A stretch of 51,736 bases of DNA from Bacilli bacterium (lineage in GTDB: Bacteria; Bacillota_I; Bacilli_A; RF39; UBA660), in NCBI GenBank assembly GCA_017432665.1, contig JAFRIS010000019.1:1-51736 (forward strand). The letters run 5' to 3'. Made by a program: the position numbers and the translations under genes. The notes beneath the pieces were generated by a model. The model was not told where the DNA came from, did no database searches, and saw nothing but the letters and a program-made list of their open reading frames with translations. Within the stretch, counting starts at the first letter, position 1. Every line of letters begins with the position of its first letter. This document shows, in pieces, positions 6,842 through 41,681 of the stretch.

Positions 6842-9800
6842 TTATTTATATAGCCATCTATAAGTTGAACTACATCCTGTGCTTGCTGCACCCCAACCTG
6901 TCCATTGTGAGCCACATGCATATCCACAACAGCCAACATCAGTACACTTAACACTACGCGCTCCAAAATGTTCGTCCCTACACTTTTTACACTTATTTAC
7001 TGTTACTGAACAACAACACCAACAACTATCTGCATATTTACCACAAATAGTACAGCCACTCTTCTTGCATGCTGTATAACTTGCTTTAGTAGTACATTTC
7101 CTTGACGTACTTGATGACATACCACACCACGTACAACTTGTGCCTTCTTTCCATTTTTTCTTCTTTTTACCGCAGCAAGTATTTGTACAAGTAGCAGCAA
7201 CATTCTTCTTAATATATTTATATTGTTTGTATGCCGTTATATTTACTGTACATGTCATAGAATTACCAACATTATCTTTGACCGTATAACTCTTATCTTT
7301 CTTTAATCCTGTATCCTTATGATCACTTCCACCTGGACAAGATACTACTCCTGATCCCCCATGATCACCACAACTATATTTTACCGTTACTCCATCTGTA
7401 GTATTTTGATGTGATTTATCTTTACTACAACTTGGTTTTTGCAAATCAACATAGATTTGAGCAGTGAAAGCAGCACAAGTTCGTACATTATCTGCATTAT
7501 CATAAATATTAAGGGCACCATAGTCTTTAGTTTTATAAGTATGCCCTGATTGAGCAAATGATTCAGAAAAGTAAACAGTTTTTTTACAACCACTATTTTT
7601 TACACTACTTGCAGAATCACGGCATTCACGAGTTATAGTTGTTCCTTTTCTACGCCAACTGCTACTTTGTCCACCTATATAGCAAGTTGGTTTTTTATAA
7701 TCTGAGTGAACTGTTTTATTAGCTGCACAAGTTCGTACATTTCCAGCCAAATCTTTAACAGAACCTCCAGCTCCTAGTCCATCAGCTCCAGCATTACTAA
7801 CATATAATTCTTTGTTATAAGTTCCATTGGATGGACTTCCATATATTGTAGAGAAAGTAGTTCTTCCTGTACATCCACTATTTTTATTTGATGCAGTCTC
7901 TTCACAAGTGGCTGTAACTGTAACTGTTTCTTGATTTCCAGATGAATCAAGTCCTATCCATCCAGCAGAATTTTCTCCTGGTGCAGTTTTTACTACATTA
8001 CATTTAGGCAATGTATAATCTACCCATACCTTTGTTACATCTGAAGGAGTTGATATATTACCAGCATTATCAACTGTTCTAAATGATATTTCATTTTTTC
8101 CTTCCAAATCTGTATTAAATAATATTGATCCTCCATTTTTGTTTGTAACACTTTTTGATGAATCATATTTTGCATCGATAGTATGTTCAAAACGATTCCA
8201 TCCAGACAAGTCTTCATCTAAAGTTTGATCCCATAAATCTGCTCCTCTATCTTTCTTATTGTTGTCACTTATAACAGTAGCAGAAGCAAATTGAACTTTT
8301 GACCAGTTACCACCTGCAGTTGGTGTATAGTTACTATATTCTACTTTAGGTGTCTTTGGCGGAGTTTTATCAATATTAGCTTTTATTCTCAATGTAACTG
8401 TGTTTCCTGCTTTATCTTTAACTGTTAATAATCCTTGTCTTCTTCCTTCTTTATTGAATCCAACTAAAATTACTTTCTTCTTAGTTCCACAGTTTCCCTT
8501 CCATTCTTCTGTTGAAACGGTAGAGGCATATCTATCATAAGCAGTTCCTGTACCTAATGTGCCATACACATCAGTATTAGGATTAGTAACATATGGTACA
8601 TTAGTTTCCCATTTCCAACTATCTAAGTGAATATTATCTGATATTTCTATTTTATAAATTACTCCATTTGGATATCTAGCATTATTCATCCAACCACCAA
8701 TTAAGTTATCATATTCACTAGTTTCTATAGTTCCGGTTCTAGATGAAGTATCATCATTAATTACCAAAGTTCCTTTAGAATAAGTATTTGTTGTATTTTC
8801 CTGTTTTCCATCTGCAGTTGATTTATAAGCTCCTAGAACATTTATTGTAGGTAGAGTTTTATCTACATTAACTTTTACACGACAACTATCTGGTGTAGGA
8901 TCTAAGTCACAAATACTATATTCATCTAATAGACTTCCTTGCAAGTTAAAATTTCCTGCATTATCCTGAACTTGAATATATCCATATTCAGCATCTGGTT
9001 GATGAGTATTTGGCCATGTTCTAGCAAATGTTGGTCTTATACAACCACTTCCATTACCATCATCACAAGTAACAGTTATAGTTCTACTCTTTTCTGGACT
9101 ATCTTTATTAATCCATGTATCTGATTCTCCAACTTTTTTATTAGTACATTTAGGATTATCAGGATCTTTTAATGTTCCTTGAGAAGGTGATTTTTCAATC
9201 ATACAACCTTTTTCATTAGTAACTTCTACTCTTGCACTAATATAGGTAGCAGTTGTAACATCTATATATTCACTAATTGGTCTAGTAACAGTTATATATT
9301 CCTCACCATTACCATTTAAAGCTCCAGAATTATATGCTTCATGTAAATCTGGTTCCCCTTCAGTTTTAACATAAATTGAATAATTATAACTTAAAATTTT
9401 AAGGTCTTCTCCATTTTCATCTTCCCCACCACTTATTTTTATAAATAGTGTTGCTTCTCTAAAATTATTTAACAATATATCACTACTTATTTCTTGTAGA
9501 CTACTATCCGTAAAATATATTTGAGGTTCTGAAGGTTTTGGAGTACATTCTGTCTCTTCAGGTGGTTCACCATCACCATTTACTTCATACTTATAATGAG
9601 TATTTGTTTCTTTAGAAACAACAACATATCCTCCTCTATCTTCTTTAAGATATTTCTTTTCAGCTAAAAATTCCGCAGTTAATGTTACTTTTCCACCAAC
9701 GTTTTTTGGTAAAGCGCTTTTATTAGCTTGCATATAGCTTTCTGCAGCCATTTTTAACGTGTTTTCATACATTTCTTTGTCTTCTTTATCTGCATTATTT

Positions 9801-9898
9801 CTAACATGTGAAACACTAGCGATTGCAATTACGCTTAAAATTCCTAGTATCACTATTGCAGCTAAAAGTTCGATCATTGTAAATCCTTTGTTTTTCAT
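6842..9898 (-). CDS. Giant modular type IV pilin-like protein (prepilin-type N-terminal signal, repeat modules, Cys-rich tail)
   Basis: The N-terminus MKNKG|FTMIELLAAIVILGILSVIAIASV has Gly-1, Phe+1, Glu+5 and a hydrophobic helix. A D-x-[AV]-[GD]-N motif occurs six times. Twenty of the last 115 residues are Cys. Confidence 0.8.
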   Translation of the reverse strand: MKNKGFTMIELLAAIVILGILSVIAIASVSHVRNNADKEDKEMYENTLKMAAESYMQANKSALPKNVGGKVTLTAEFLAEKKYLKEDRGGYVVVSKETNTHYKYEVNGDGEPPEETECTPKPSEPQIYFTDSSLQEISSDILLNNFREATLFIKISGGEDENGEDLKILSYNYSIYVKTEGEPDLHEAYNSGALNGNGEEYITVTRPISEYIDVTTATYISARVEVTNEKGCMIEKSPSQGTLKDPDNPKCTNKKVGESDTWINKDSPEKSRTITVTCDDGNGSGCIRPTFARTWPNTHQPDAEYGYIQVQDNAGNFNLQGSLLDEYSICDLDPTPDSCRVKVNVDKTLPTINVLGAYKSTADGKQENTTNTYSKGTLVINDDTSSRTGTIETSEYDNLIGGWMNNARYPNGVIYKIEISDNIHLDSWKWETNVPYVTNPNTDVYGTLGTGTAYDRYASTVSTEEWKGNCGTKKKVILVGFNKEGRRQGLLTVKDKAGNTVTLRIKANIDKTPPKTPKVEYSNYTPTAGGNWSKVQFASATVISDNNKKDRGADLWDQTLDEDLSGWNRFEHTIDAKYDSSKSVTNKNGGSILFNTDLEGKNEISFRTVDNAGNISTPSDVTKVWVDYTLPKCNVVKTAPGENSAGWIGLDSSGNQETVTVTATCEETASNKNSGCTGRTTFSTIYGSPSNGTYNKELYVSNAGADGLGAGGSVKDLAGNVRTCAANKTVHSDYKKPTCYIGGQSSSWRRKGTTITRECRDSASSVKNSGCKKTVYFSESFAQSGHTYKTKDYGALNIYDNADNVRTCAAFTAQIYVDLQKPSCSKDKSHQNTTDGVTVKYSCGDHGGSGVVSCPGGSDHKDTGLKKDKSYTVKDNVGNSMTCTVNITAYKQYKYIKKNVAATCTNTCCGKKKKKWKEGTSCTWCGMSSSTSRKCTTKASYTACKKSGCTICGKYADSCWCCCSVTVNKCKKCRDEHFGARSVKCTDVGCCGYACGSQWTGWGAASTGCSSTYRWLYK

Positions 9899-10186: not shown

Positions 10187-10286
10187 ATTATCTCTCCTTC
10201 CGCCATGACAAATTTTTTTGCCATAGTTAATAAACGCGTAATTAATATATCAAATAATCTTTAATTTTTCAAGTTTTTTCGAATAT

Positions 10287-18780: not shown

Positions 18781-19557
18781 TTATAATAAACCTATATATT
18801 TTGATATTACATTAACTATCAAGTCTATTAGCATCGGAATCCCAATTATTAATGTAATATATAACTTTCTATTTTTTGACAAATTCCTTAATAATTTTTC
18901 TATAAATGGTTGAACTGTATATAAAAGAACAGTTCCCCCAATTGCAAAATTTCTAGAAGCATCCCAATTTATTCTCTTATTAACATTCAAAAAATCTCTA
19001 GAATAGTCCCATAACATTGTGTGAAATAACTTATCAGTCATAAAATGTGATGCATATTCAATTACTGTAGTTATAACCCAAATCAATAAGAAGACTAAAA
19101 TTATTGTAACATCTAGTTTTCTTATTTTTTTTGACTTCGTATTCTTTAATATGAAATATACAATACTTAAAACTAATAAATTTGTAATAAATAGGCCAAC
19201 ACCATATTTACTTAGAAAATCACCAACATGATAAATTCGCGGTGTAGTATATTCAATAATAGTTACAAAGATAAAAGTAACTGCAGTAAGTACAGAAATT
19301 ATTAAGTATATTGGTTGATTTATTTGATGCTTTTTATTCATAAATTTATCTAACATAAATATCAATATTAGCATTCCAAATCCATAAATAGGAAGAAAAG
19401 GTCCAAACAAAACACCTCTATTTACAAAATGATATGGTGGTACTACAAACCATAACCAAATTACTTCATATAACCAACCTATTAAGGCATATATACAGAA
19501 TATTAAATAATAATCTGGAAATTTTTTTAGTATCTTTTTCACTATTCCACACTCCAA
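18781..19557 (-). CDS. Polytopic membrane protein, putative ABC-transporter type IV (CmpB/PF06541-like)
   Basis: 258 aa with multiple TM helices and an N-terminal IYALIGWLYEVIW signature. The start is uncertain: TTG at 19557 or GTG at 19542. Confidence 0.55.
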   Translation of the reverse strand: MECGIVKKILKKFPDYYLIFCIYALIGWLYEVIWLWFVVPPYHFVNRGVLFGPFLPIYGFGMLILIFMLDKFMNKKHQINQPIYLIISVLTAVTFIFVTIIEYTTPRIYHVGDFLSKYGVGLFITNLLVLSIVYFILKNTKSKKIRKLDVTIILVFLLIWVITTVIEYASHFMTDKLFHTMLWDYSRDFLNVNKRINWDASRNFAIGGTVLLYTVQPFIEKLLRNLSKNRKLYITLIIGIPMLIDLIVNVISKYIGLL

Positions 19558-20204
19558 TCTATTTCTTTTAAATTATTATCACTTAAGAACTTGTTTGTTT
19601 TAGAAAAAGGTCTACTACCAAAGAATCCATTTCTAGCAGAAAATGGTGATGGATGAGCTGACTCAATAATTAAATGTCTAGAGTTAGTAATTAAACCTCT
19701 TTTATTTCTCGCATAAGATCCCCATAATATAAATACTACTGGTTCTTTTTTATTATTAAGTATTTTTATAACATCATCAGTAAAAGTCTCCCAACCTTTA
19801 TCTTTATGAGATGTTGGTTTATGTTCTTCTACTGTTAGTACTGCATTTAATAGTAAAACCCCTTGTTTAGCCCATGGCTTTAAGGAGTTACTCTTAGGAA
19901 AAGGTATTCCTAAATCACTTTCTAATTCTTTAAATATGTTCTGTAATGATGGTGGCTTTAAGACTTCATTACTTACTGAAAAGGATAGTCCTTCAGCTTG
20001 ATTAGGACCATGATATGGATCTTGCCCTAAGATTACTACTTTTACATTATCAAAAGAAGTATATCTAAAAGCATTAAATACTTCGTTTTGTTTAGGATAA
20101 ATAATTTTATGCTTATACTCTTCTTTTACAAATTCCAAGAGATTTTTGAAATATTCCTTCTGATATTCATCTTTTAAAAGAGCATCCCAATCATTTCCTA
20201 TCAT
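19542..20204 (-). CDS. ung: Uracil-DNA glycosylase
   Basis: VILGQDPYHGPNQAEGLSFSV and AHPSPFSA. The start is set at ATG 20204 behind AGGTGA. Confidence 0.93.
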   Translation of the reverse strand: MIGNDWDALLKDEYQKEYFKNLLEFVKEEYKHKIIYPKQNEVFNAFRYTSFDNVKVVILGQDPYHGPNQAEGLSFSVSNEVLKPPSLQNIFKELESDLGIPFPKSNSLKPWAKQGVLLLNAVLTVEEHKPTSHKDKGWETFTDDVIKILNNKKEPVVFILWGSYARNKRGLITNSRHLIIESAHPSPFSARNGFFGSRPFSKTNKFLSDNNLKEIDWSVE

Positions 20205-20205
20205 A

Positions 20206-20820
20206 TTAGTCACCTATTTCATATTCTTTTAGTACTAGTTTTATATCTTCTACATTATCAGGTTTAACAGTTCTACCCTTAATTCCAAGAGAATTAGCTG
20301 TCCTAATATTATCCTCTCTATCATCTATAAATAAGCTTTCTTCCGGAATTATTTTATATTTATCAATTAAATACTTATATATACCCTCATAAGGTTTAAT
20401 CATGTGTATTTTATATGACAACACTACTCCGTCAAATAAGTATTCTATATCTTTTATAACTTTTTCATAACTTTTTTCATTAGTATTAGACAATAAATAT
20501 ACTTTATAACCTTTATTTTTTAAATTTTTAATTATTTCAATCACTTCTTGTTGAATATATCTATATTCATAAAAATTATTCATAAAATTTATTACTAAAT
20601 CTTTATATTTATTGTTACTTCGATCATTTATAATATTAGTAATTTCTTCTCCGGAAAGATAACCAGTATCAATAAGACCTAAACCTCCCCATTCTGGAGA
20701 ATTCACAACACTATTTATTAAGAAATCTTGTTCTTCCTGTGAAGAAGTAAACTTTGGAACTATTTCTTTGGCATTAAAAGTCATTAATACATTACCAAAA
20801 TCAAATATTATATTTTTCAT
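20206..20820 (-). CDS. HAD-superfamily hydrolase
   Basis: Motif I-like IIFDFGNVL, LLSNTN and FIDDREDN. The start is set at ATG 20820. Confidence 0.75.
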   Translation of the reverse strand: MKNIIFDFGNVLMTFNAKEIVPKFTSSQEEQDFLINSVVNSPEWGGLGLIDTGYLSGEEITNIINDRSNNKYKDLVINFMNNFYEYRYIQQEVIEIIKNLKNKGYKVYLLSNTNEKSYEKVIKDIEYLFDGVVLSYKIHMIKPYEGIYKYLIDKYKIIPEESLFIDDREDNIRTANSLGIKGRTVKPDNVEDIKLVLKEYEIGD

Positions 20821-20827
20821 ATTACAC

Positions 20828-21283
20828 CTACTTATGATAACTTTCATTATTATTAATCTTATAAGCTCTATATATTTGTTCTAAAAGAATCACTCTAAAC
20901 AATTGATGAGGAAAAGTTAGTTTTGAAAAAGATAAATGCAAATTAGCCTTATTCTTAATACTATCTGATAAGCCATAACTTCCACCAATTATAAATGTAA
21001 TATTACTATTTTCAATAAAAATAGTTCTTATTTTTTCGGCAAATTCAGGGGAAGTATACTCTTTACCATCAATTTCCATTGTGATGATATAGTCCTTTTC
21101 TCCTAAATGCTTTTCAATCTTTAAAGCTTCCATTTCAAGAGCTTTTTTTTCTTCAACTAGACCTTCGTCTTTTACTTCAATGATTTCTAGATTAGTATAC
21201 TTAGAAATTCTTTTCTTGTATTCTTCCATTCCATCTTTTAAATATTTTTCTTTAATAGAACCAACTGTGATTACTTTTATCAT
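20828..21283 (-). CDS. rlmH: 23S rRNA (pseudouridine1915-N3)-methyltransferase RlmH
   Basis: MIKVITVGSIKEKYLKDGMEEYKKRISKY and a SPOUT C-terminus FIIGGSYGL...SFSKLTFPHQL. Confidence 0.88.
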   Translation of the reverse strand: MIKVITVGSIKEKYLKDGMEEYKKRISKYTNLEIIEVKDEGLVEEKKALEMEALKIEKHLGEKDYIITMEIDGKEYTSPEFAEKIRTIFIENSNITFIIGGSYGLSDSIKNKANLHLSFSKLTFPHQLFRVILLEQIYRAYKINNNESYHK

Positions 21284-21296
21284 ATAATTCTTCTTT

Positions 21297-22052
21297 CTAT
21301 ATTTTAATCATTTTTGTTTCTTCATATTGTTTAGCTATTATTATTTCTACTTTTTTGTCTATTTCTTCTTCTATCATGGCACCTATTGCTTTTTCCTCAG
21401 TATTATTTTTTTCACTTAAATGGGCTAATACTACAATTTTAGTGCTTTGACCTATTACTTTTTTTAAATATTTAGCAGTAGTTTTATTAGATAAATGCCC
21501 TTGATCACTAATTACTCTTTCTTTTAGAAATCTAGGATAAGGTCCATCCATTAGCATTATTTCGTCATGATTACTTTCAATTACATAGGCAGTCTTATCA
21601 ATCATTTTGTTTAAATACTTTCTGTTTATATATCCAGTATCTGTAACATAGACAAGGCTTTTTTCAAAGTAATTAATTATATATCCTACTGAATAGGGGG
21701 CATCATGAGAAGTATGAATTAATTCTATATTTACTTCATTAATATTAAATTTGTCTTCGACAAAGATACATCTATCTTTTTCAACATATTCTTTTAAACT
21801 TTCATACATTTCTTCGGGGATATAAATATTCAATTTAGTATGCTTCAAAAGCGAAGCAAGACCCTTTATATGGTCAGTATGACAGTGCGTTATTAATATT
21901 CCTGAAAAGTCTGTAAAAGAAAGGGAATTTTCTTCTAAACTTTTCTTTAAAGTTAAGTAAGAAATTCCCATATCAATTATCAAATTAGTATTATCACATA
22001 ACACAATTGTGCAATTTCCTTTTGACCCACTTGCTAGCACTTTAAACTTCAT
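21297..22052 (-). CDS. MBL-fold metallo-hydrolase (YycJ/WalJ-like)
   Basis: MKFKVLASGSKGNCT and ITHCHTDHIKG. The start is set at ATG 22052, 1 nt after the upstream stop. Confidence 0.8.
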   Translation of the reverse strand: MKFKVLASGSKGNCTIVLCDNTNLIIDMGISYLTLKKSLEENSLSFTDFSGILITHCHTDHIKGLASLLKHTKLNIYIPEEMYESLKEYVEKDRCIFVEDKFNINEVNIELIHTSHDAPYSVGYIINYFEKSLVYVTDTGYINRKYLNKMIDKTAYVIESNHDEIMLMDGPYPRFLKERVISDQGHLSNKTTAKYLKKVIGQSTKIVVLAHLSEKNNTEEKAIGAMIEEEIDKKVEIIIAKQYEETKMIKI

Positions 22053-22053
22053 C

Positions 22054-23568
22054 TTAATAGAATTGCATTGCATTTAGTGCAACACCTCCACGATATGGAT
22101 AACCTTTCCAAATAGCAAAGTGTAAGTGTACTCCTGTTGCGAATCCTGTTTGTCCCATACCTCCGATAACTTGTCCTTTTTCAACATAATCACCGGCTTT
22201 TACATAACGGCAGCCATTACATAGATGTGCATACATTGAATAGTATCCATTATGATGATCTATAGTAATAAATTGACCGTTATCATATTTAGATCCTGAT
22301 TGAACAACTGTCCCTGATTGAGCAGCAAATATGTTAGATCCATATCCACAACCATTAATATCAGTACCATCATGGAATGATCCCCAACGCCATCCAAATG
22401 GACTTGAAACACTTGAACATGATGCCGGCCATCCCCATTGACCTTTAGTAGCTACTACTGTTCCATAGCCTCCACCATAGTACGCTGAGTAACTTGATTT
22501 TTTACCACCTTTAAGAACTATTTCATTAACAGGTTCTTTAATTACTTCAGTAGCAGTAGTAACAGCATTAACTGTTTCACCATTGATTTTTTGTACTTTT
22601 TGAGTAACTTTATTCTCCCCAGCAGAACCTTTTTGAAGAATTTTTTCATATCCTACTAATTGATTGTTATCATATCTAGTAACTGTAGTATATTTCTTTT
22701 GCTCTCTTTTTACCACATGATCTTCTTCTACTAAACTAAATTGTGGCTTTAAGATACCTAATGTAACTACTTGTCCAGGAGATAACAAACTATTTTCATC
22801 TTGTAAATCTGGATTAGCTATTAAAAATTCTTCTACTGATATTTTATTATTAAAAGCAACATCACTAATAGTATCTCCATCTTTGATAGTATATTTTGCT
22901 TGATCTTCAGTAGTTCCAAATAATAAATATTTACTTAGCATATCTTCTGATTCATAGATGTTTTTATCTACTGGTATTTTAGTTTTTTTGATAGTTATTT
23001 TATTCTTAATATAAATTGCTTCTATTATTGTTCCAGTATCTTGAATTTCTTTCTGTGTATCATTAGCAAAATTATCATAATCTTCTGGTTTTATAAATGA
23101 TTTTGCTGCTTTTTCGATAGAATTAGTAAAGACTTCTTTCTTTAAAACATAGATATTTTGATACTTAGGTTGTTCTTTTTTATCTTTTTCTCTATTTCTA
23201 TCATTCTTAGTTTCTACTGTTCTTATCTTTACAACATAACCATCTATTGTAAACGGTGAAGTATCTTTTATTTCATTATAGATTTGTTTATTTGTTTTTA
23301 AGTCATTACTAAAAGTTGTTTCCTTAACAATATCTAGATCTGTAGGTACATATACTTTTTTTACACCATATTTCCTTTTTATTTCTTCTTGTTGTTTATC
23401 GATATAATTCTCAAAACTACTTTTTGACTTAATTAGACCTAGTGATTTACCTTTTAAATAAACTCTATATACTGTTTGAGGCTCAGTATTAATATTAGTA
23501 AATCCTGTAGTTATTACTAGTGAAAATAATAAAAGTATTGTCATTATAATTTTAATATTTTTATTCAC
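22054..23568 (-). CDS. Secreted M23 peptidoglycan metalloendopeptidase with LysM and G5-like regions
   Basis: N-terminal signal or anchor. LysM-like YTIKDGDTISDVAFNNKISVEEFLIANP. M23 core HDGTDI...YAHL...TGVHLHFAIW. The GTG start overlaps the dnaB stop. Confidence 0.8.
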   Translation of the reverse strand: MNKNIKIIMTILLLFSLVITTGFTNINTEPQTVYRVYLKGKSLGLIKSKSSFENYIDKQQEEIKRKYGVKKVYVPTDLDIVKETTFSNDLKTNKQIYNEIKDTSPFTIDGYVVKIRTVETKNDRNREKDKKEQPKYQNIYVLKKEVFTNSIEKAAKSFIKPEDYDNFANDTQKEIQDTGTIIEAIYIKNKITIKKTKIPVDKNIYESEDMLSKYLLFGTTEDQAKYTIKDGDTISDVAFNNKISVEEFLIANPDLQDENSLLSPGQVVTLGILKPQFSLVEEDHVVKREQKKYTTVTRYDNNQLVGYEKILQKGSAGENKVTQKVQKINGETVNAVTTATEVIKEPVNEIVLKGGKKSSYSAYYGGGYGTVVATKGQWGWPASCSSVSSPFGWRWGSFHDGTDINGCGYGSNIFAAQSGTVVQSGSKYDNGQFITIDHHNGYYSMYAHLCNGCRYVKAGDYVEKGQVIGGMGQTGFATGVHLHFAIWKGYPYRGGVALNAMQFY

Positions 23569-24931
23569 TTGATTTTTCCTCCGTATTTTTCATATCTCTT
23601 CTTAAGTTTAAGAAGGTAGAAGTATTCTTTTTAAATAATAGTTCTATTTTAGCAGTAGGTCCACTACGATGCTTAGCTATATTTACTTCAATAAGACTAT
23701 TATCATCATCACTTGCTTGTTTATCACTACTCTTATAGTAATCATCACGATATAAGAAAGTAACAATATCGGCATCTTGCTCAATTGAACCTGAATCTCT
23801 TAAGTCACTTAATACCGGTCTCTTATCTTCTCTTTGATCTACACCACGTGATAACTGAGAAAGAGCAAGAATAGGCACGCCTAATTCTAATGCTAATGTC
23901 TTTAAACTTCTTGATATATCAGAAACTTCTTGTTGTCTATTAGCACCATAGTTCTTACCTCCAGATAATAATTGTAGGTAGTCAATTACAATTAAAGCTA
24001 AACCTTTTTCACTACTAGCTAATCTACGACATTTAGCTCTTAATTCTCCGATTGTTATACCTGAAGAATCTTCAATAATTAAATTTGATGAAGCTAATTG
24101 TGCAGCAGCTTCATTAAGTCTCTTCCAATCTTGATTTAATAAATTACCTGTTCTTAGTTTAAATCCATCAATTTGTCCCAATGAAGACAAAATACGCATT
24201 GCTAATTGCTCAGCACTCATCTCTAAATTGAATACTACTACTGATTTTTCTTGAGTCATAGCTACATGAGTAGCAATATTTAATGCAAAAGCTGTTTTAC
24301 CTACAGCAGGTCTAGCAGCTAAGATAATTAATTCGTTTTCATGTAATCCTGTTGTAACTCTGTCAAAATCATACCAACCTGTAGCTAATCCTGTTACCTC
24401 TCCTTTTTTCTCAGATAACATTTCCAAGTCTTCTTGAACCTTAGCAACAACATCTTTTATTGGTCTAAACTCTGTACTGGTTCTTCTCTTTACGATATTT
24501 AAAATCTTTTTTTCAGAACTATCTAGTATTTCATTTACTGTTTCATCAGTACGATATCCATCAGATGCGATTTCAGTAGCTGTTTCTATTAAATTTCTTA
24601 ATACAGCAGATTCTTCTACCGCCTGCAAATAATAATCTATATTAGCAGCTGTTGGAACATAGTTTAATATTTCAGTTAAATATTCTACTCCACCTACTGC
24701 ATTTAATTCATTCTTTTTTTGTAATATACTTGTTACTGTTGTTATATCAATTGGTGTATTCTCATCCAACAAAGTAGTCATAGCAGCAAATATTTTACCA
24801 TTCTTTTCACTATAAAAAGATTCTGGCATTAAGTTTTCTGCTGCTTTTTGAACAGCATATTTAGATAAAAAGCAAGAGCCTAATACCGCTTGTTCTGCTT
24901 CTAAATTATGTGGTAATACTTTAGTTGGCAT
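23561..24931 (-). CDS. dnaB: Replicative DNA helicase
   Basis: 456 aa containing LPHNLEAEQAVLGS, Walker A AARPAVGKTAFALN and IVIDYLQLL. Confidence 0.95.
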   Translation of the reverse strand: MPTKVLPHNLEAEQAVLGSCFLSKYAVQKAAENLMPESFYSEKNGKIFAAMTTLLDENTPIDITTVTSILQKKNELNAVGGVEYLTEILNYVPTAANIDYYLQAVEESAVLRNLIETATEIASDGYRTDETVNEILDSSEKKILNIVKRRTSTEFRPIKDVVAKVQEDLEMLSEKKGEVTGLATGWYDFDRVTTGLHENELIILAARPAVGKTAFALNIATHVAMTQEKSVVVFNLEMSAEQLAMRILSSLGQIDGFKLRTGNLLNQDWKRLNEAAAQLASSNLIIEDSSGITIGELRAKCRRLASSEKGLALIVIDYLQLLSGGKNYGANRQQEVSDISRSLKTLALELGVPILALSQLSRGVDQREDKRPVLSDLRDSGSIEQDADIVTFLYRDDYYKSSDKQASDDDNSLIEVNIAKHRSGPTAKIELLFKKNTSTFLNLRRDMKNTEEKSSE

Positions 24932-24941
24932 ACTATCACCT

Positions 24942-25382
24942 CTACTTTATAACATGTACTTTCACAGTAGCCACGATATCCTGATGAAGATTTATCTTAA
25001 CATTATGAAATCCTAATGTAGATATAGATCCATCAATATCGATCATATTCTTCTCTACTTTATATCCCTTTTTATCCAATTCATCTTTTATTTGTTTAAC
25101 ACTAATGCTTCCAAAAACTTTATCTCCAGCACCAGTTTTTACTTTAAATTCTAAAGTTTCTTTAGCTAATTGTTCTTTCATTTTCTTGGCATTTTCTTTA
25201 TTCACTTCATCTTCTTTAGCTTTCTTTGCTTTTTCATGTTCTAATTTAGCTACATTCTCTTTAGTCTTTTTAACGGCATAGCCATTTTTTATTAAGAAGT
25301 TTTCAGCATAACCATCTTTAACATTCTTAATTTGTCCCTTTTTACCTTGATTTTTCAAATCTTTGATAAAAATTACTTCCAT
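24942..25382 (-). CDS. rplI: 50S ribosomal protein L9
   Basis: [36 protein letters not shown]. Confidence 0.95.
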
Positions 25383-31373: not shown

Positions 31374-31395
31374 GAAAAAAATACCTAAAGGTATT
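31374..31395 (-). terminator. Intrinsic terminator of the VirD4-like gene
   Basis: Minus strand reads AATACC-TTTA-GGTATT then TTTTTTC, starting at the stop codon. Confidence 0.65.
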
Positions 31396-32749
31396 ATTTT
31401 TCTTCATATATTTTAATTATATTAGTTTCTCTTACAGGAATTGTTGCCTTTTTTGCTTCATAGCCCCAATCTATTTCATAATCTGGTAACAGTTTAGTTT
31501 TAAAAGGCATCATTCTTGGTAGTAAGATAATTGCCGAAAAAATACTAAGTGTTTTTAATTCAGAAACTGAAATTAACGGTTCTTCTTTGTTGTTTACTAT
31601 ATGTGTTCCACAATTTTTAGATATTTCTTCTAATGTATAGATATCATTTGATAACAAATAAATAGTATTTCCAAAGCACATCTTTAATATTTCTACATCT
31701 TCTTTGGAATACATATTTGCTAGGTGTACAAAGCTTTGAATAGCAACTGTAACTCTGATATTTATCGATCTACAGTATCCTAATTTTAGAGCAAAGTCTT
31801 TAATAGGTATCAAAGAATCGAATTCATCTAATAATAAGTTTAATCTCTTTTCTTTATTACCATATAAAGATACTGCATCTATTACTTGATTAGCAAATAA
31901 AGGTATTAAATTACGGCAAAAACTACTAACACCAGTCACAATAAAGATAGCTGTCTTATCATTACTTATTGTAGACATTTCAAAATCACTAGTTGAAAGC
32001 ATATTAGCTAAGTTTTCTTTAGATAAATATCTCTCAATTTTTTGATTAAATACTGAAATGATACTTCCTCTAGTTTCAGGTGGAGCTTGCAATGTTCCTG
32101 CTAATTTCATGAACATTACAGGATCTTTTTCTACTTTCTTTAAGAATTGTTCACTAGAAGTTTTATCCAATAATGCATTAGCTAGTTTTGCAACGCTATT
32201 TAAATTAATTTCCTCTTCTTTAGCAGTTTTAAATAAATATAATACTATTCCAGTAAAATAATTTATTGATGAATTAACCCAAAAAGGATCTGCTTCACTC
32301 TTTTGTGCTTCTGCAAGTAAATAATATCCTAAGTCTTCAATTAACTCTATTGCTTTATCAGGATTTCCTTCTTTATATTGTTTGTGAGCTAAAGTTAGAG
32401 GATTCCAATTATTTCCTTTACGTGAATCTTCAAAATCAATTACGATATTTTTATAACCTTCATCTTCTAATTTTTGAGCTGTTTTTTCATAAATTTCACC
32501 TTTAGGATCATTTATTACTATTGATTCTCCTGCCATCATAGCTAACTTTAAGATTGGCAAAATGACAGCTTGTGTCTTTCCACTACCTGTACTACCTATC
32601 AACAAATTGTGTGCCTCATAAGTATCTATGTATAAATACTTATCATCATACATTACAGGTAATCCAGATTTTTCTACTCCTGTTTCTAGATTTACCGCTA
32701 CTGTTTTTTTCTGAATATGTTCTCTAGTTGCCCATTCAGAATAACTCAT
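31394..32749 (-). CDS. TM-less VirD4/TraG-family (type IV coupling protein-like) ATPase
   Basis: Walker A LIGSTGSGKTQAVILP, Walker B RLNLLLDEFDSL, and DPFWVNSSINYFTG. The hydrophilic N-terminus MSYSEWATREHIQKK has no TM helices. The start is set at ATG 32749 behind GGAGGGAAG. Confidence 0.7.
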   Translation of the reverse strand: MSYSEWATREHIQKKTVAVNLETGVEKSGLPVMYDDKYLYIDTYEAHNLLIGSTGSGKTQAVILPILKLAMMAGESIVINDPKGEIYEKTAQKLEDEGYKNIVIDFEDSRKGNNWNPLTLAHKQYKEGNPDKAIELIEDLGYYLLAEAQKSEADPFWVNSSINYFTGIVLYLFKTAKEEEINLNSVAKLANALLDKTSSEQFLKKVEKDPVMFMKLAGTLQAPPETRGSIISVFNQKIERYLSKENLANMLSTSDFEMSTISNDKTAIFIVTGVSSFCRNLIPLFANQVIDAVSLYGNKEKRLNLLLDEFDSLIPIKDFALKLGYCRSINIRVTVAIQSFVHLANMYSKEDVEILKMCFGNTIYLLSNDIYTLEEISKNCGTHIVNNKEEPLISVSELKTLSIFSAIILLPRMMPFKTKLLPDYEIDWGYEAKKATIPVRETNIIKIYEEK

Positions 32750-32818
32750 ACTCTTCCCTCCTTCTGACATTATTAAATCACAAAAAATTACATACTATTT
32801 AAACAATAACGACTTTTG

Positions 32819-37671: not shown

Positions 37672-37700
37672 GAAAAAAAAGTAGATTTTTATTAATCTAC
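37672..37700 (-). terminator. Intrinsic terminator after noc
   Basis: Minus strand reads GTAGATT-AATAAA-AATCTAC followed by 8 U. The first arm includes the stop codon. Confidence 0.8.
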
Positions 37701-38957
37701 TTTATCCTCAGTTTTATCAATCTTTATAATCATCTGATATGACTTTTCAAAGTCCATTTCATCAGCTGTTACTTTTATACCATGAGCCTTTAAATCTTCT
37801 ACTAAATCTTTAATCTTCTTTGATGCTTCATCTATTGTATATGTTTCAGTATCTTTTTCTTCTTGATTTATGATACTGGGAGGTAATTCAATTGATGATA
37901 AATCAGAAGTATTAAAATAATCAGATACTTTATCTTCATCTTCATCCATAGAATCAGTCTTTACTATTTTTTCTGCTGGAGTAATAAATTCATTAGCAGG
38001 AATTGAAGATGTCGGATTACCTAAATTTAATAAACTATCTAAAGCATTACCACTACTCTCTGGTTTTATATCATTACTTTTTTCCTTTATCGCATTAACA
38101 TCTACAGATGTTACAGATGGTGGAATAACTGCTGGTATTTGTTTTTCTTCTTCTTTGTCTATTTCTCCATAATTAACTATTTTTGCATTTGGCATTTCTT
38201 CACCCTCTGGAGGCGCAATAGTTACCTTTCCATAATTTGATTGATCCTCTTGCACTTCTGCAGTAGGAATTAAGGGATTATCATTAACAAAAGCTCCTAC
38301 TGAAGCAACCACTTCTTCTTTCTTCTCTTCTGGTTTTGGTGTTGTCTTACCTAACATACCTTTTATTTCATCTTCTAGGCTTCTAACACTCATTTTATTA
38401 TCAATGACTTTCTTAGCCATTTCTTTTTGTTTTTCAGGATCTTCTATATTTAGTAAAGCCCTAGCATGTCTTTCTGATAACTCTTCTTTTAATAAATACT
38501 CTTGTATTTCATCTGGTAAAGAAAGCAACCTTAGTTTATTAGATACTGCAGATTGACTTTTTCCCATTGTTCTAGCCAATTCATCTTGAGTCATTTGATC
38601 AATTTCTAGAATTTTTTGATATGTTCTTGCTTCTTCTATAGGATTTAGATTCTTTCTTTGAAGGTTTTCAAGTAAAGCTACTTTTGAACTTTCTTTATCA
38701 TCTAAATCTCTAATAATAGCAGGGATTTTAGTAAGACCAGCTAAAGCTGAAGCTTTATATCTTCTTTCACCAGCTATTATCTCATATTTGCCATTAACAC
38801 TTCGTACAATTATTGGTTGTATTACACCATGTTCTTTAATAGATACCGCTAATTCTTTTAAGGCTCTTTCATCAAATACTTCTCTGGGTTGAAACCTATT
38901 TGGAATAATGTCATCTAAGTATAATTGTACAACTTCGTCTTTAGTATCTGGATACAT
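37692..38957 (-). CDS. noc: ParB-family nucleoid occlusion protein (Noc-like) with a long low-complexity insertion
   Basis: IIPNRFQPREVFDE and IIAGERRYKASA, with the Noc-type C-terminus GIKVTADEMDFEKSYQMIIKIDK (compare B. subtilis GVKLNTEEEEFEEYIQLTIRIPK). The start is set at ATG 38957 behind GAGAGGGGA. Confidence 0.8.
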   Translation of the reverse strand: MYPDTKDEVVQLYLDDIIPNRFQPREVFDERALKELAVSIKEHGVIQPIIVRSVNGKYEIIAGERRYKASALAGLTKIPAIIRDLDDKESSKVALLENLQRKNLNPIEEARTYQKILEIDQMTQDELARTMGKSQSAVSNKLRLLSLPDEIQEYLLKEELSERHARALLNIEDPEKQKEMAKKVIDNKMSVRSLEDEIKGMLGKTTPKPEEKKEEVVASVGAFVNDNPLIPTAEVQEDQSNYGKVTIAPPEGEEMPNAKIVNYGEIDKEEEKQIPAVIPPSVTSVDVNAIKEKSNDIKPESSGNALDSLLNLGNPTSSIPANEFITPAEKIVKTDSMDEDEDKVSDYFNTSDLSSIELPPSIINQEEKDTETYTIDEASKKIKDLVEDLKAHGIKVTADEMDFEKSYQMIIKIDKTEDKVD

Positions 38958-39016: not shown

Positions 39017-39023
39017 CTAAAAA

Positions 39024-39055
39024 CAAAAAAAGAAATTACATTTTTTGTAATCTCT
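39024..39055 (-). terminator. Intrinsic terminator of the 534-aa/98-aa cassette
   Basis: Minus strand reads AGAGATTACA-AAAAA-TGTAATTTCT (10 bp with one G-U pair) followed by 7 U. Confidence 0.85.
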
Positions 39056-39059
39056 TTTA

Positions 39060-39356
39060 TTACTTATTATCTTTGTTTTCTAATATTTCAGTTATTTTAT
39101 CAACTAAATCACATAAAGATGTTTGAATAGAACTTGCATAAACTACAACTGCTTCTACAAAATCTTCTTCTGATTCTTTATTTTTTTGTCCTTCTAAGAC
39201 ATCTTTTGTAATAATCATTTCATTTGCGCAACCGAGTTCAATACACATAGCATTAGTTAAACCAGTTATTATTTTTAGTTGTTCTAAGGCTATTTCTTTT
39301 TTTTCTTTTAATGAATTTTCTTTAAATTGTTCCATATATTGATTAAATTCTTTCAT
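39060..39356 (-). CDS. Hypothetical 98-aa acidic helical protein
   Basis: ATG at 39356 behind AGGTGA, 10 nt after the stop of the upstream gene. I recognise no motif. It has 3 Cys and no TM helix. Confidence 0.5.
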   Translation of the reverse strand: MKEFNQYMEQFKENSLKEKKEIALEQLKIITGLTNAMCIELGCANEMIITKDVLEGQKNKESEEDFVEAVVVYASSIQTSLCDLVDKITEILENKDNK

Positions 39357-39365
39357 ATTTTTCAC

Positions 39366-40970
39366 CTATTTAAACATTCCTTTTAATTCTTCTTGTTCTG
39401 ATTTTGATAATTCTGCTTTATCCATTAGCATTAAATATCTTGCCCATTTCCCAGTAACTTTGGCCATAGCTTTTTGAACTTCAGATAATCCATATACTTT
39501 TTTCTTAGCACTTGCTTTGGCATCATGTGTTGCTTGAAGTTCTTTTCCTTTTCCTTGTAAATCAAATTCCTGTTCTAACTTAGCCCAAGGTGAAAATCTT
39601 GCGTGTTCTCCCAAAAAATCATTACAAATAGCTACTAGTTTTTTTTCCATTTCTTTATTTCGTTTTTCCTTGTCAGGTCCTGTTAAATCATACATAGATT
39701 TTTCCTTATTATGTTCTTCTAATCTTCCTAATATTACATTTGCAAAACAAATTTGTAGCTTTTCTAATCTTTCTGATTTATTCTGATGATAATTTTCTGG
39801 TAAAGAAGATTCTGAATAATATTTTTCTTCTTTTGCTTTTATTCCGCGATATAAAATTGCTATATCTTCAACAGACATTAATCTTGTTGCAATATGAACT
39901 CTCTTCCTATAATTATCTATTTCACCGTTTTTATCATAACTATTTAAAAGTTTTTGACTTACTATCTTATTTATTGTGTTTTTTATTAGTTCTGGAGAAG
40001 CTATACTGGCTCCAAAATTTAGTACATAATCTTCATTTTTCTTTATTACAGAATCAACATTTCTTTTTTGTTCTGCACTTAAATTTCCATAGTATGCCAT
40101 AAATCTAGCATATGCTTGTTGGTATTTTGCTAAACTGTTTTTTATTCCTATTCTTTGAAACAATTCTGGATTTTTACCAGGTTCACTATATAATAACTCT
40201 CTAACTATCACATCAACAGTTAATAATCCCATATTCATAATATCAGTAGCTTGAATATTTTCTCTATTAGAATAATTCTCTATTTGTAATCCTCTATCTA
40301 AAACAGTTGCTGTATAGTAATATCCTGACTTAGAAAGTTCTGGATATACTTCACAAATCAGTTTTTTTTCATCATCAGTTAATCCCCATAATGTTGCTTT
40401 TTTATGAATGTGTTCTTCAATTATCTTATCTACTTCTTTTTTCTTTTCTTCTGGTGTTTGCTTTTTTAGTGGTTCTGAATTTATTACTTTTTTTTGTTTT
40501 GCATCTTCTGTTTTTTTCTGTTCATAAGCTTCTGTTATTTCTTTTGATCTTTCCCTATTTAGATTTTCAATTTGTATTTTAGCAGAGATATAACTATTCA
40601 TAGCTGATTTTAAAGTTCCAAATGTGTCATTTGCAATTCTATCTACAATTTTTTCGTGTTTTTCTCTATCCATCCTTACCATAAAAAGTTTTTGATGTTG
40701 CTTCAATATATCGCTAACCATTTCATAAGAAGGGGTTCTTGGTCTTTTATATTTTTCTACTTCTGTTATTATCTTATTTCTTATAATTCTTGCTTGTTGA
40801 TTGTCTACCTTACTCATTTGAGTTATTTTTGAACTTATTTTTTCTCTTTGTTTTTCTTTATCGAATTTTAATAAAGCTACACATGTTCTTATAATTAACA
40901 TGGCTAATTGCTTTTCTTTATCATATTTGGCGTATTCTTTATTGTAAAATTCATCACCTTTATACATATA
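39366..40970 (-). CDS. Hypothetical 534-aa Lys/Glu-rich cytoplasmic protein
   Basis: ATG at 40970 behind GAGGTGG (MYKGDEFYNKEYAKYDKEKQ...). It is a long uninterrupted ORF in AT-rich DNA with no TM helix, no signal peptide and no motif I recognise. Confidence 0.55.
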   Translation of the reverse strand, partial: YMYKGDEFYNKEYAKYDKEKQLAMLIIRTCVALLKFDKEKQREKISSKITQMSKVDNQQARIIRNKIITEVEKYKRPRTPSYEMVSDILKQHQKLFMVRMDREKHEKIVDRIANDTFGTLKSAMNSYISAKIQIENLNRERSKEITEAYEQKKTEDAKQKKVINSEPLKKQTPEEKKKEVDKIIEEHIHKKATLWGLTDDEKKLICEVYPELSKSGYYYTATVLDRGLQIENYSNRENIQATDIMNMGLLTVDVIVRELLYSEPGKNPELFQRIGIKNSLAKYQQAYARFMAYYGNLSAEQKRNVDSVIKKNEDYVLNFGASIASPELIKNTINKIVSQKLLNSYDKNGEIDNYRKRVHIATRLMSVEDIAILYRGIKAKEEKYYSESSLPENYHQNKSERLEKLQICFANVILGRLEEHNKEKSMYDLTGPDKEKRNKEMEKKLVAICNDFLGEHARFSPWAKLEQEFDLQGKGKELQATHDAKASAKKKVYGLSEVQKAMAKVTGKWARYLMLMDKAELSKSEQEELKGMFK

Positions 40971-40986
40971 AACCACCTCTATTATG

Positions 40987-40995
40987 ATTATAGCA
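40987..40995 (-). promoter_or_regulatory. Extended -10 (TGCTATAAT) for the 534-aa/98-aa cassette
   Basis: Exact TGCTATAAT on the minus strand, in the 57-nt gap after the rsmG stop. Confidence 0.6.
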
Positions 40996-41027
40996 TTATT
41001 TTCTTTTGATACAAAGAAAAACAAGTA

Positions 41028-41681
41028 TTAAATTACTTGTTTATGTTTCATTACCACTAAACTTCTTTTACTAGTTTCTTTTGGTAGTAAAAACTTATCT
41101 ATTTTAATAATTTTGTACTTTTTATTAAGTTTTTTTTCTACTTCTGGAGTTAATTCATTATCAATATCACCTTTCATAGCAACAAAAACTCCATCTTTAG
41201 AAACTAAATGCATAGTATAATTAACCAATTTCTCAATATTAGCAACTGCTCGTGAAGTAACTACATCAAAACTTCCTTTAAAATCTTCTCCCCTAACATG
41301 AATTGCTTCTATATTAGATAAATTCAATTCTTTTATCACTTCATTTAAGTAATTAATTCTCTTTTGTAGAGAATCTACTAAAGTTATTTTTAAATTTGGA
41401 AAAGCAATTTTTAAAACTATTCCTGGAAAACCTGCTCCTGTACCGATATCACATAAAGTTTTAGTATTCTTTAAATCAACTACTTTATTTAATGTGAGAC
41501 TATCATAAAAATGCTTTAAATAAACTTCTTCTTTATCAACAATTCTAGTTAAATTAATTTTTTGATTCCATTCAACTAACAATTTGTAAAAGAGTTCTAA
41601 TTGTTCTAATTGTTCATCTGTTAATGATATGTTTATTTTTTCTAATTCTATTAAAAATTCTTCTCTAGTCATTTTTACCAT
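41028..41681 (-). CDS. rsmG: 16S rRNA (guanine527-N7)-methyltransferase RsmG/GidB
   Basis: WNQKINLTRI and DIGTGAGFPGIVLKI. An alternative ATG at 41672 overlaps the mnmG stop. Confidence 0.92.
   Translation of the reverse strand: MVKMTREEFLIELEKINISLTDEQLEQLELFYKLLVEWNQKINLTRIVDKEEVYLKHFYDSLTLNKVVDLKNTKTLCDIGTGAGFPGIVLKIAFPNLKITLVDSLQKRINYLNEVIKELNLSNIEAIHVRGEDFKGSFDVVTSRAVANIEKLVNYTMHLVSKDGVFVAMKGDIDNELTPEVEKKLNKKYKIIKIDKFLLPKETSKRSLVVMKHKQVI

Follow-up and report, generated by a model that had tools for sequence, protein, structure and literature searches.

A chromosomal two-gene cassette of RF39-type Bacilli pairs a fast-evolving, predicted helical protein with a small, conserved acidic protein

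A 51,736-nucleotide stretch of DNA from a Bacilli bacterium (GTDB lineage Bacteria; Bacillota_I; Bacilli_A; RF39; UBA660), comprising positions 1 to 51,736 of contig JAFRIS010000019.1 in NCBI GenBank assembly GCA_017432665.1 and referred to here as the window, carries a two-gene cassette on the minus strand between rsmG and a noc-like ParB gene. We designate the upstream gene X and the downstream gene Y. The two genes are strictly linked and, judged by their sequences, constitute two new protein families. The explanation we favour, which we hold tentatively and would place slightly short of even, is that the chromosomally encoded X and Y proteins are the two subunits of a non-enzymatic complex, with the acidic Y protein sitting on the basic C-terminal tail of X.

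Results

Linkage of X and Y and conservation of the X tail

Linkage was assessed on a set consisting of the window, the loci found via X homologues and 42 more that a Y-based metagenome scan returned. Clustering at 95% Y identity gave 47 groups, 43 of which have room for a gene upstream of Y. In all 43 of these non-redundant loci, the gene directly upstream of Y carries the X tail: the X model matches the upstream open reading frame (ORF) at E < 1e-5 in 40 of them, and the tail motif was recognised by eye in the other three. The initial annotation had raised the question of whether the pair co-occurs elsewhere, for example in defence islands; it does so strictly, and without defence islands. 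Most loci for which a junction was called have a gap of -4 to +11 nt between X and Y, and the majority of these build the Shine-Dalgarno (SD) sequence of Y from the last codon and the stop of X.

The part of X that accompanies Y everywhere is its C-terminus. In distant loci the gene upstream of Y encodes only ~98-180 aa and resembles X in the last ~59 residues only, which read ...R-F-F-G-M-S-K-L-K-Q-T...E-L-N-K-M-F-R; alignment of this short-X tail with the X tail gave an hhalign probability of 98.4% (E 4e-15). Across the family, the tail follows the consensus ...R-F/Y-Y-G-M/L-S-K...E-E-L-x-x-M-F-R, is basic in nearly all homologues and forms the very end of the protein in many of them, which terminate exactly in ...MF or ...MFR. 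It is borne by full-length X, by 167-aa proteins and by 98-120-aa proteins.

A three-gene variant was observed in seven loci (L111, L122, L124, L125, L126, L129 and L132; for example, L129 6915-8288), where a 186-aa helical protein is followed by a 167-aa tail-only protein (98 aa in L125) and Y. The N-terminus of the 186-aa protein resembles DUF5344/Lap3 in four of the seven members (best E 4.1e-5, under the cut-off). DUF5344 corresponds to Lap3, which acts as a targeting factor in type VIIb secretion (bioRxiv 10.1101/2023.07.21.550046). No secretion genes were found among the neighbours of this variant.

Protein properties, structural models and family searches

X is a basic protein (isoelectric point (pI) 9.2, net charge +18), with a charge of +12 in its N-terminal domain and +6 in its last 63 residues. 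Y is acidic, with a pI of 4.5 in the window and of 4.3-5.0 across homologues. The AlphaFold2 model of X, built from a 33-sequence alignment, is all-alpha with 24 helices (predicted local distance difference test (pLDDT) 88.8, predicted template modelling score (pTM) 0.65); a disordered linker at residues 161-169 joins an N-terminal part of long helices to a larger helical body. Y was modelled as a four-helix protein (pLDDT 88.6, pTM 0.76). These models bear out the earlier description of X as helical and of Y as acidic and helical, and, as read, X has no signal peptide or hydrophobic span, in keeping with the annotated lack of a transmembrane helix.

Neither protein was recognised in database searches, as the initial annotation had surmised from the sequence alone. 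Searches of the window proteins against Pfam, NCBIfam, PHROGs and PADLOC, and of 33 X and 37 Y homologues against Pfam, gave no recurrent family, and searches of PDB sequences with single sequences and profiles of X and Y returned only noise at E > 0.1. Foldseek comparison of the AlphaFold models, as the initial annotation had proposed, likewise gave no fold match: the X model reached a best E of 0.14 against PDB (TM score at most 0.17 among the 50 best matches) and of 0.12 against BFVD (TM score at most 0.2), and the Y model a best E of 2.9 against PDB. In X, no HTH, ParB, ParA or SMC-type family or fold was detected by Pfam or by Foldseek against PDB. X and Y are therefore, as judged by sequence and profile searches, two new families, and the models suggest that they probably have new folds.

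Conservation patterns differ between the two proteins. Only N333, M364, Y373 and Q405 are invariant in X, a set that includes no Asp, Glu, His, Ser, Cys, Lys or Arg and does not look catalytic. Y has 13 invariant residues among 37 sequences, including C38 and C82. Weak, scattered EF-hand matches of Y (S100-Z, E 0.3; myosin light chain, E 0.6; EF-hand_6, E 0.0075 in one of 37 sequences) led us to consider an EF-hand protein, which we rejected on the grounds that the loop residues misfit the DxDxDGxIxxxE pattern and no family match is significant. Two further stray matches were recorded, RT_II-A of PADLOC for Y (13.8 bits, E 0.0058) and FliD_N in one of 33 X members (E 0.033).

Family size and hosts

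When 1.84 billion representatives were searched exhaustively with HMMER, 46 relatives of X were returned, 11 with an E value below 1e-30; they are mostly 500-640 aa long and many align along most of their length. The exhaustive search was needed, since a word-indexed protein search with X, by single sequence or profile, found only one 99% identical copy, Lys/Glu-rich words swamping the candidates. The Y profile recovered 408 homologous clusters of 93-122 aa, which bear no informative names; the few named ones come from 'Bacilli bacterium' and Candidatus Coprovivens. Both X and Y have many homologues under purifying selection and are thus more than chance ORFs.

X-Y is known from low-GC RF39-type metagenome contigs only, and all loci have a GC content of 22-31%. 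Searches of IMG/VR, GenBank phages and PLSDB plasmids returned no relatives. The relatives of the window rsmG belong to uncultured gut or rumen metagenome-assembled genomes labelled 'Bacilli', 'Tenericutes' or 'Erysipelotrichaceae', including Candidatus Faecimonas. Faecimonas and Coprovivens have been placed in order RF39, in families CAG-611 and CAG-1000 (PMC8035907). The RF39-type Bacilli are uncultured inhabitants of the gut whose genomes are small, ~1.4 Mbp in a described relative (PMC8035907).

Evolutionary rates

X diverges far faster than its surroundings. Between the window and L096, which carries the cassette at the same site, X is 35% identical against 79-93% for its neighbours (MnmG 93%). 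The number of non-synonymous substitutions per site (dN) is 0.58 for X and 0.21 for Y, against 0.04-0.14 for five flanking genes, at synonymous values (dS) of 0.91, 0.80 and 0.67-0.81, respectively. Two other synteny groups show the same order, with identities of 33-48% for X, 59-85% for Y and 60-81% for the neighbours.

Within species, X copies are ~99% identical with a dN/dS of 0.18-0.53, which lies near the range of rsmG (0.20-0.36) and above noc, soj and spo0J, and Y shows zero non-synonymous changes. These rates fit a loosely constrained, retained and vertically inherited X, and not a strain-variable conflict locus.

The rsmG|noc junction and other genomic contexts

The gene order in the window is mnmE, mnmG, rsmG, X, Y, noc-like ParB gene, soj and spo0J, all on the minus strand. 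That rsmG and noc are normally adjacent, as the initial annotation stated, holds in 23 of the 28 related species for which a single fetched contig carries both genes; in these 23, the two are separated by 95-210 bp without the pair. X-Y occupies this junction in one genus-level group only, and there in two of three species (the window and L096 groups; L096 together with L097-L100 and L102). In a tree built from mnmG, rsmG, noc and soj, the window clusters with L002 and L096 (~90-92% identity). Presence of the cassette at the junction therefore varies within the clade; the pair is not universal at the locus, does not belong to a characterised family and does co-vary. In cassette-free L002, a hairpin comes after the rsmG stop, and next to it stand the U-run and noc promoter that the window also has. 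A possible remnant of the X leader in L002 amounted to a 9-nt A/T-rich match only and was not used.

Other single genes occupy the same junction elsewhere: a 172-aa ORF of no family in L006 (7649-8167), one encoding a thymidylate-synthase-like plus pterin-binding protein in L024 (3762-5189), and one encoding an HD-domain protein in L027 (7735-8319). Genes have thus been inserted repeatedly between rsmG and noc.

The pair, in turn, occurs in at least ten housekeeping contexts. It lies between rlmH and udg or follows M23 peptidase, truB, ispG, pta, PNP_UDP_1 or recD2-like genes, to name the main ones read, and wherever neighbours were readable it is co-oriented with, and placed among, housekeeping genes. 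All annotated or recognisable neighbours are housekeeping genes or unannotated, with no defence, integrase or transposase gene among them. Within each sampled species, all contigs that were read show the same context. A single Y sequence has index entries in 341 blocks of the collection, where contigs reach ~520 kb, and the places read share one context. With rsmG|noc being one of several permissive sites, the location of X-Y says nothing about its function.

In the window, the rlmH|udg site is filled differently: the minus-strand order at 19545-25382 is rplI-dnaB-M23 peptidase-MBL-rlmH-[HAD hydrolase]-udg, the HAD gene (20206-20847) standing where X-Y sits elsewhere. A distance of 18 kb separates this site from rsmG|noc, and both belong to one origin-proximal region. 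The family most often found next to X-Y is that of the M23 peptidases (16 loci, 2-3 independent arrangements). In L088 and L106-L113 (for example, L109 5154-6161), a lineage to which the Ga0247608/Ga0247609 contigs belong, an M23 peptidase precedes X-Y in most loci, and a membrane protein that weakly matches a type IV secretion pilin-like family (E 3.4e-4, under the cut-off) also lies upstream.

Anatomy of the cassette

The initial annotation described a promoter-to-terminator two-gene unit between rsmG and a separately promoted noc, and all of its signals were found on the minus strand (Table 1). The unit is closed by a hairpin and U-run, as described, with a z-score of -3.5 relative to shuffles; with fewer than three G-C pairs in its stem, it had escaped a simple terminator scan. 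Two measures needed correction. Y indeed has 98 aa, and X has 533 aa, the 534 given before being the codon count with the stop included. The AGGTGA SD of Y is present as described, with nine rather than ten nt between the X stop and the Y ATG (39356). The noc promoter, also as described, is kept in relatives without the cassette.

Upstream, the hairpin over the rsmG stop is likely the rsmG terminator, and with rsmG having its own hairpin, X is probably transcribed from its own promoter. The promoter-leader block recurs as TGnTATAAT-yATAATAGAGGTG before the X homologue in the majority of the printed contexts that hold a full-length X, six unrelated contexts among them, from which it follows that the X-Y unit travels with its own expression signals.

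Table 1 Features of the cassette and its immediate neighbours in the window
Feature	Position	Strand	Description
rsmG	41028-41681	-	Upstream neighbour; Pfam GidB E 2.8e-53; stop TAA 41030-41028
rsmG-stop hairpin	41013-41048	-	Inverted repeat with 15-nt arms, 87% complementary, 6-nt loop, then T-rich run
X promoter	40995-40987	-	Extended -10 TGCTATAAT; read in sequence
Promoter-leader block	40973-40995	-	TGCTATAAT-CATAATA-GAGGTGG; extended -10, short leader and X SD
X SD	40979-40973	-	GAGGTGG; read in sequence
X	39366-40967	-	ORF, ATG at 40967, TAG stop 39368-39366 included; 533 aa
X C-terminal tail module	39369-39539	-	Residues ~477-533, ...VYGLSEVQKAMAKVTGKWARYLMLMDK...EELKGMFK
Y SD	39367-39362	-	AGGTGA; overlaps the TAG stop of X; translational coupling
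Y	39060-39356	-	ORF, 98 aa; acidic four-helix protein with invariant C38 and C82
Intrinsic terminator closing the cassette	39018-39058	-	13-bp A/T-rich stem and U-run; free energy -11.9 kcal/mol
noc promoter	39016-38988	-	TTGAAA-17-TATAAT; outside the cassette; best promoter match in the region, 11/12
noc-like ParB gene	37692-38957	-	Downstream neighbour; ParB_N and HTH_ParB; TIGR04285 291 bits, cut-off 315

X and Y share a reading frame in the window, separated only by the TAG and the three codons GTG AAA AAT (39357-39368, minus strand), and read-through of the TAG would yield a 635-aa X-Y fusion. This arrangement looks accidental, because spacing and frame vary in other loci.

Several further possibilities were considered and dropped. 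A foreign origin of the cassette finds no support in its composition, as its GC content (26-28%) is the same as that of the flanks. A promoter-leader motif common to noc and X shows no enrichment in the window, where it has 8 matches and 5.6 would be expected. A search for direct or inverted repeats and att-like sites flanking the cassette gave only A/T-rich chance matches. Rfam gave no RNA family within or near the cassette, and no mobility genes were found with it.

Other genes of the window and its relatives

The noc-like ParB protein has 421 aa, of which residues 8-216 match the Noc model TIGR04285. Its last ~205 residues form an acidic, low-complexity extension with no family match, which is kept in the clade (tblastn matches in L002-L033) yet diverges fast. 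In two metagenome contigs of the L096 species (L098 7404-8669 and L099 6622-7887), noc was called as two ORFs of 145 and 242 aa instead of one of 421 aa, reflecting either a frameshifted allele or an assembly error.

Reassignment of AGG or CGG is known in the neighbouring order RFN20 (PMC8629427). An alternative genetic code was rejected for the window, where AGG and CGA occupy invariant Arg positions of noc, indicating the standard code. AGG and CGA are rare in the 11 genes checked (15007-44912), yet they are placed at invariant Arg positions. All 11 genes end in TAA or TAG, and TGA occurs neither inside nor at the end of any of them.

Three further features of the window lie apart from the cassette. 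A 458-aa VirD4/TraG-type type IV secretion coupling protein (31394-32770, minus strand) is encoded alone upstream of ychF, among housekeeping genes and at the same place in L096. The sole recognisable feature of a 1018-aa protein (6842-9898, minus strand) is an N-terminal prepilin-type methylation motif, by which it classes as a giant pilin-like protein. The sole Rfam match in the window is an L31-Firmicutes ribosomal protein leader (10194-10226, minus strand).

Discussion

We favour an explanation in which X-Y would be a chromosomal operon specific to the RF39-type lineage of gut Bacilli, probably well expressed, with a strong promoter of its own and coupled translation. Y, a small acidic protein of four predicted helices, would dock on the conserved basic C-terminal tail of X (~60 aa), and the remainder of X would form a fast-evolving, basic alpha-helical scaffold. 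From the co-occurrence, the conserved tail and the opposite charges, we infer that X and Y bind via the tail, with Y as its partner or chaperone, and that the complex would be structural or regulatory rather than catalytic. The strong positive charge of X makes a polyanion, such as nucleic acid or an envelope polymer, the first-guess ligand. The pair would be passed down vertically within lineages, and over longer times the whole promoter-to-terminator cassette would have moved between intergenic sites of housekeeping operons.

Several points weigh against this explanation. Divergence as fast as that of X is commoner among secreted, surface or conflict proteins than among cytoplasmic scaffolds. 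The closest relative of the window, L002, keeps noc-soj-spo0J but lacks X-Y at this junction. Co-variation speaks for binding through the tail, in that distances between tails correlate more closely with distances between Y proteins (rho 0.80) than do distances over the rest of X (rho 0.60), but the correlation between tail and Y is confounded by shared phylogeny and is suggestive only. Finally, the explanation names no cellular process.

A more far-reaching version, which we regard as possible but rather doubtful, would make X-Y the founding example of an RF39-specific module. The ~60-aa tail would then be a portable handle for the 98-aa Y protein, mounted on varied helical bodies; the module would serve either a novel export or targeting route or a cell-architecture or nucleoid scaffold, and would move as a cassette without a mobility gene. 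General traits of X are shared by lineage-specific helical scaffolds of Bacillota cell division. Proteins of the EzrA and DivIVA/GpsB class are non-enzymatic, all-alpha, cytoplasmic, poorly conserved and encoded among housekeeping genes. Unlike these, X has no Pfam or NCBIfam match, lacks a membrane-anchor-like hydrophobic stretch as read and has an obligate small partner, and none of them appeared among its 50 best PDB folds.

Among the other alternatives, export fares best, although we consider it unlikely. X would be a secreted or surface protein, and Y a chaperone or targeting factor for a C-terminal export module, in the manner of WXG100/LXG-Lap or flagellin-FliS pairs. The resemblance to type VIIb LXG effectors with their Lap1-4 and WXG100 partners is one of architecture: a large, all-helical protein without a signal peptide or N-terminal hydrophobic span diverges faster than its neighbours and is immediately adjoined by the gene of a helical partner of ~100 aa. 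The sub-threshold Lap3-like N-terminus of the extra upstream helical protein in the three-gene variant adds to this resemblance, as does a weak YwqH-like match in one X variant (E 0.012). The conservation of X at its extreme C-terminus likewise speaks for export. However, the DUF5344 matches are confined to that distant variant, and Pfam found no LXG, WXG100 or Lap family at E <= 0.1 among the 33 X and 37 Y homologues. X and Y themselves have no LXG, WXG100, DUF3130, DUF3958, DUF5082 or significant DUF5344 match, and no variable toxin domain or immunity gene accompanies them. The conserved targeting part of LXG effectors is N-terminal and that of X-Y C-terminal, and the helper gene lies downstream rather than upstream. 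Neither the annotated genes at the X-Y loci fetched nor the 10 window/L083 proteins scanned showed anything related to secretion, Foldseek provided no match for Y, and X varies little within species.

The flagellin-FliS pair offers a second comparison for export. FliS is a small acidic helical-bundle protein paired with the larger helical flagellin. In X, too, the extreme C-terminus is conserved as the presumed docking site, and the middle is variable. In contrast to that system, no Flagellin_N/C or FliS match was obtained, and no flagellar genes lie nearby.

The initial annotation offered a toxin/immunity or defence pair as one interpretation, which our data make improbable. In that case X would act as a toxin or against phages as an effector, with Y as the corresponding immunity protein, antitoxin or sensor partner. 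A large protein with a small acidic partner in a translationally coupled two-gene unit with its own promoter is reminiscent of type II toxin-antitoxin and polymorphic toxin-immunity modules. A conflict system would also suit the rapid divergence of X between species, the changing genomic context of the cassette and its differing presence at this site among three congeneric species. In polymorphic toxin systems, however, an immunity protein is expected to track its cognate toxin domain, and Y is instead far more conserved than X. A 533-aa protein without invariant catalytic-type residues next to a highly conserved 98-aa protein, with no toxin, antitoxin or immunity domain in either, does not resemble the known modules. 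PADLOC matched neither the window X nor its 33 homologues, and no PHROGs family was found. The pair is neither strain-variable nor on mobile elements. Within a species, strains share 99% identity and dN/dS stays below 1; collections of viruses, phages and plasmids yielded no relative, the GC content equals that of the flanks, and the neighbours are housekeeping or unannotated genes with no defence, integrase or transposase gene.

Equally improbable, and likewise raised by the initial annotation, is an accessory role in chromosome organisation with Noc/ParAB, in which the strongly basic X would bind DNA near the origin with the acidic Y as its regulator: the charges of the X N-terminal domain and tail and the origin-proximal position of both rsmG|noc and rlmH|udg would suit it, but the pair adjoins noc in a single genus-level group and elsewhere follows genes such as truB, ispG, pta, PNP_UDP_1, recD2-like or M23 peptidase genes, L002 has the noc-soj-spo0J genes without the pair at the junction, Pfam detected no HTH or other DNA-binding family in X, and Foldseek against PDB did not match the X fold to SMC, kleisin, ParB or nucleoid proteins.

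X-Y thus stands outside known families, folds and systems, which reflects ignorance of its function and is not proof of a new mechanism. Its position inside the origin-proximal partition locus is no evidence here of a partition function, because the rsmG|noc junction repeatedly takes unrelated genes. The pair is kept across at least two families in small genomes and has its own strong promoter, and is therefore unlikely to be dispensable. The arrangement of a tail and its partner would represent a concrete protein-protein interaction, and may offer a way into the biology of organisms that have not yet been grown.

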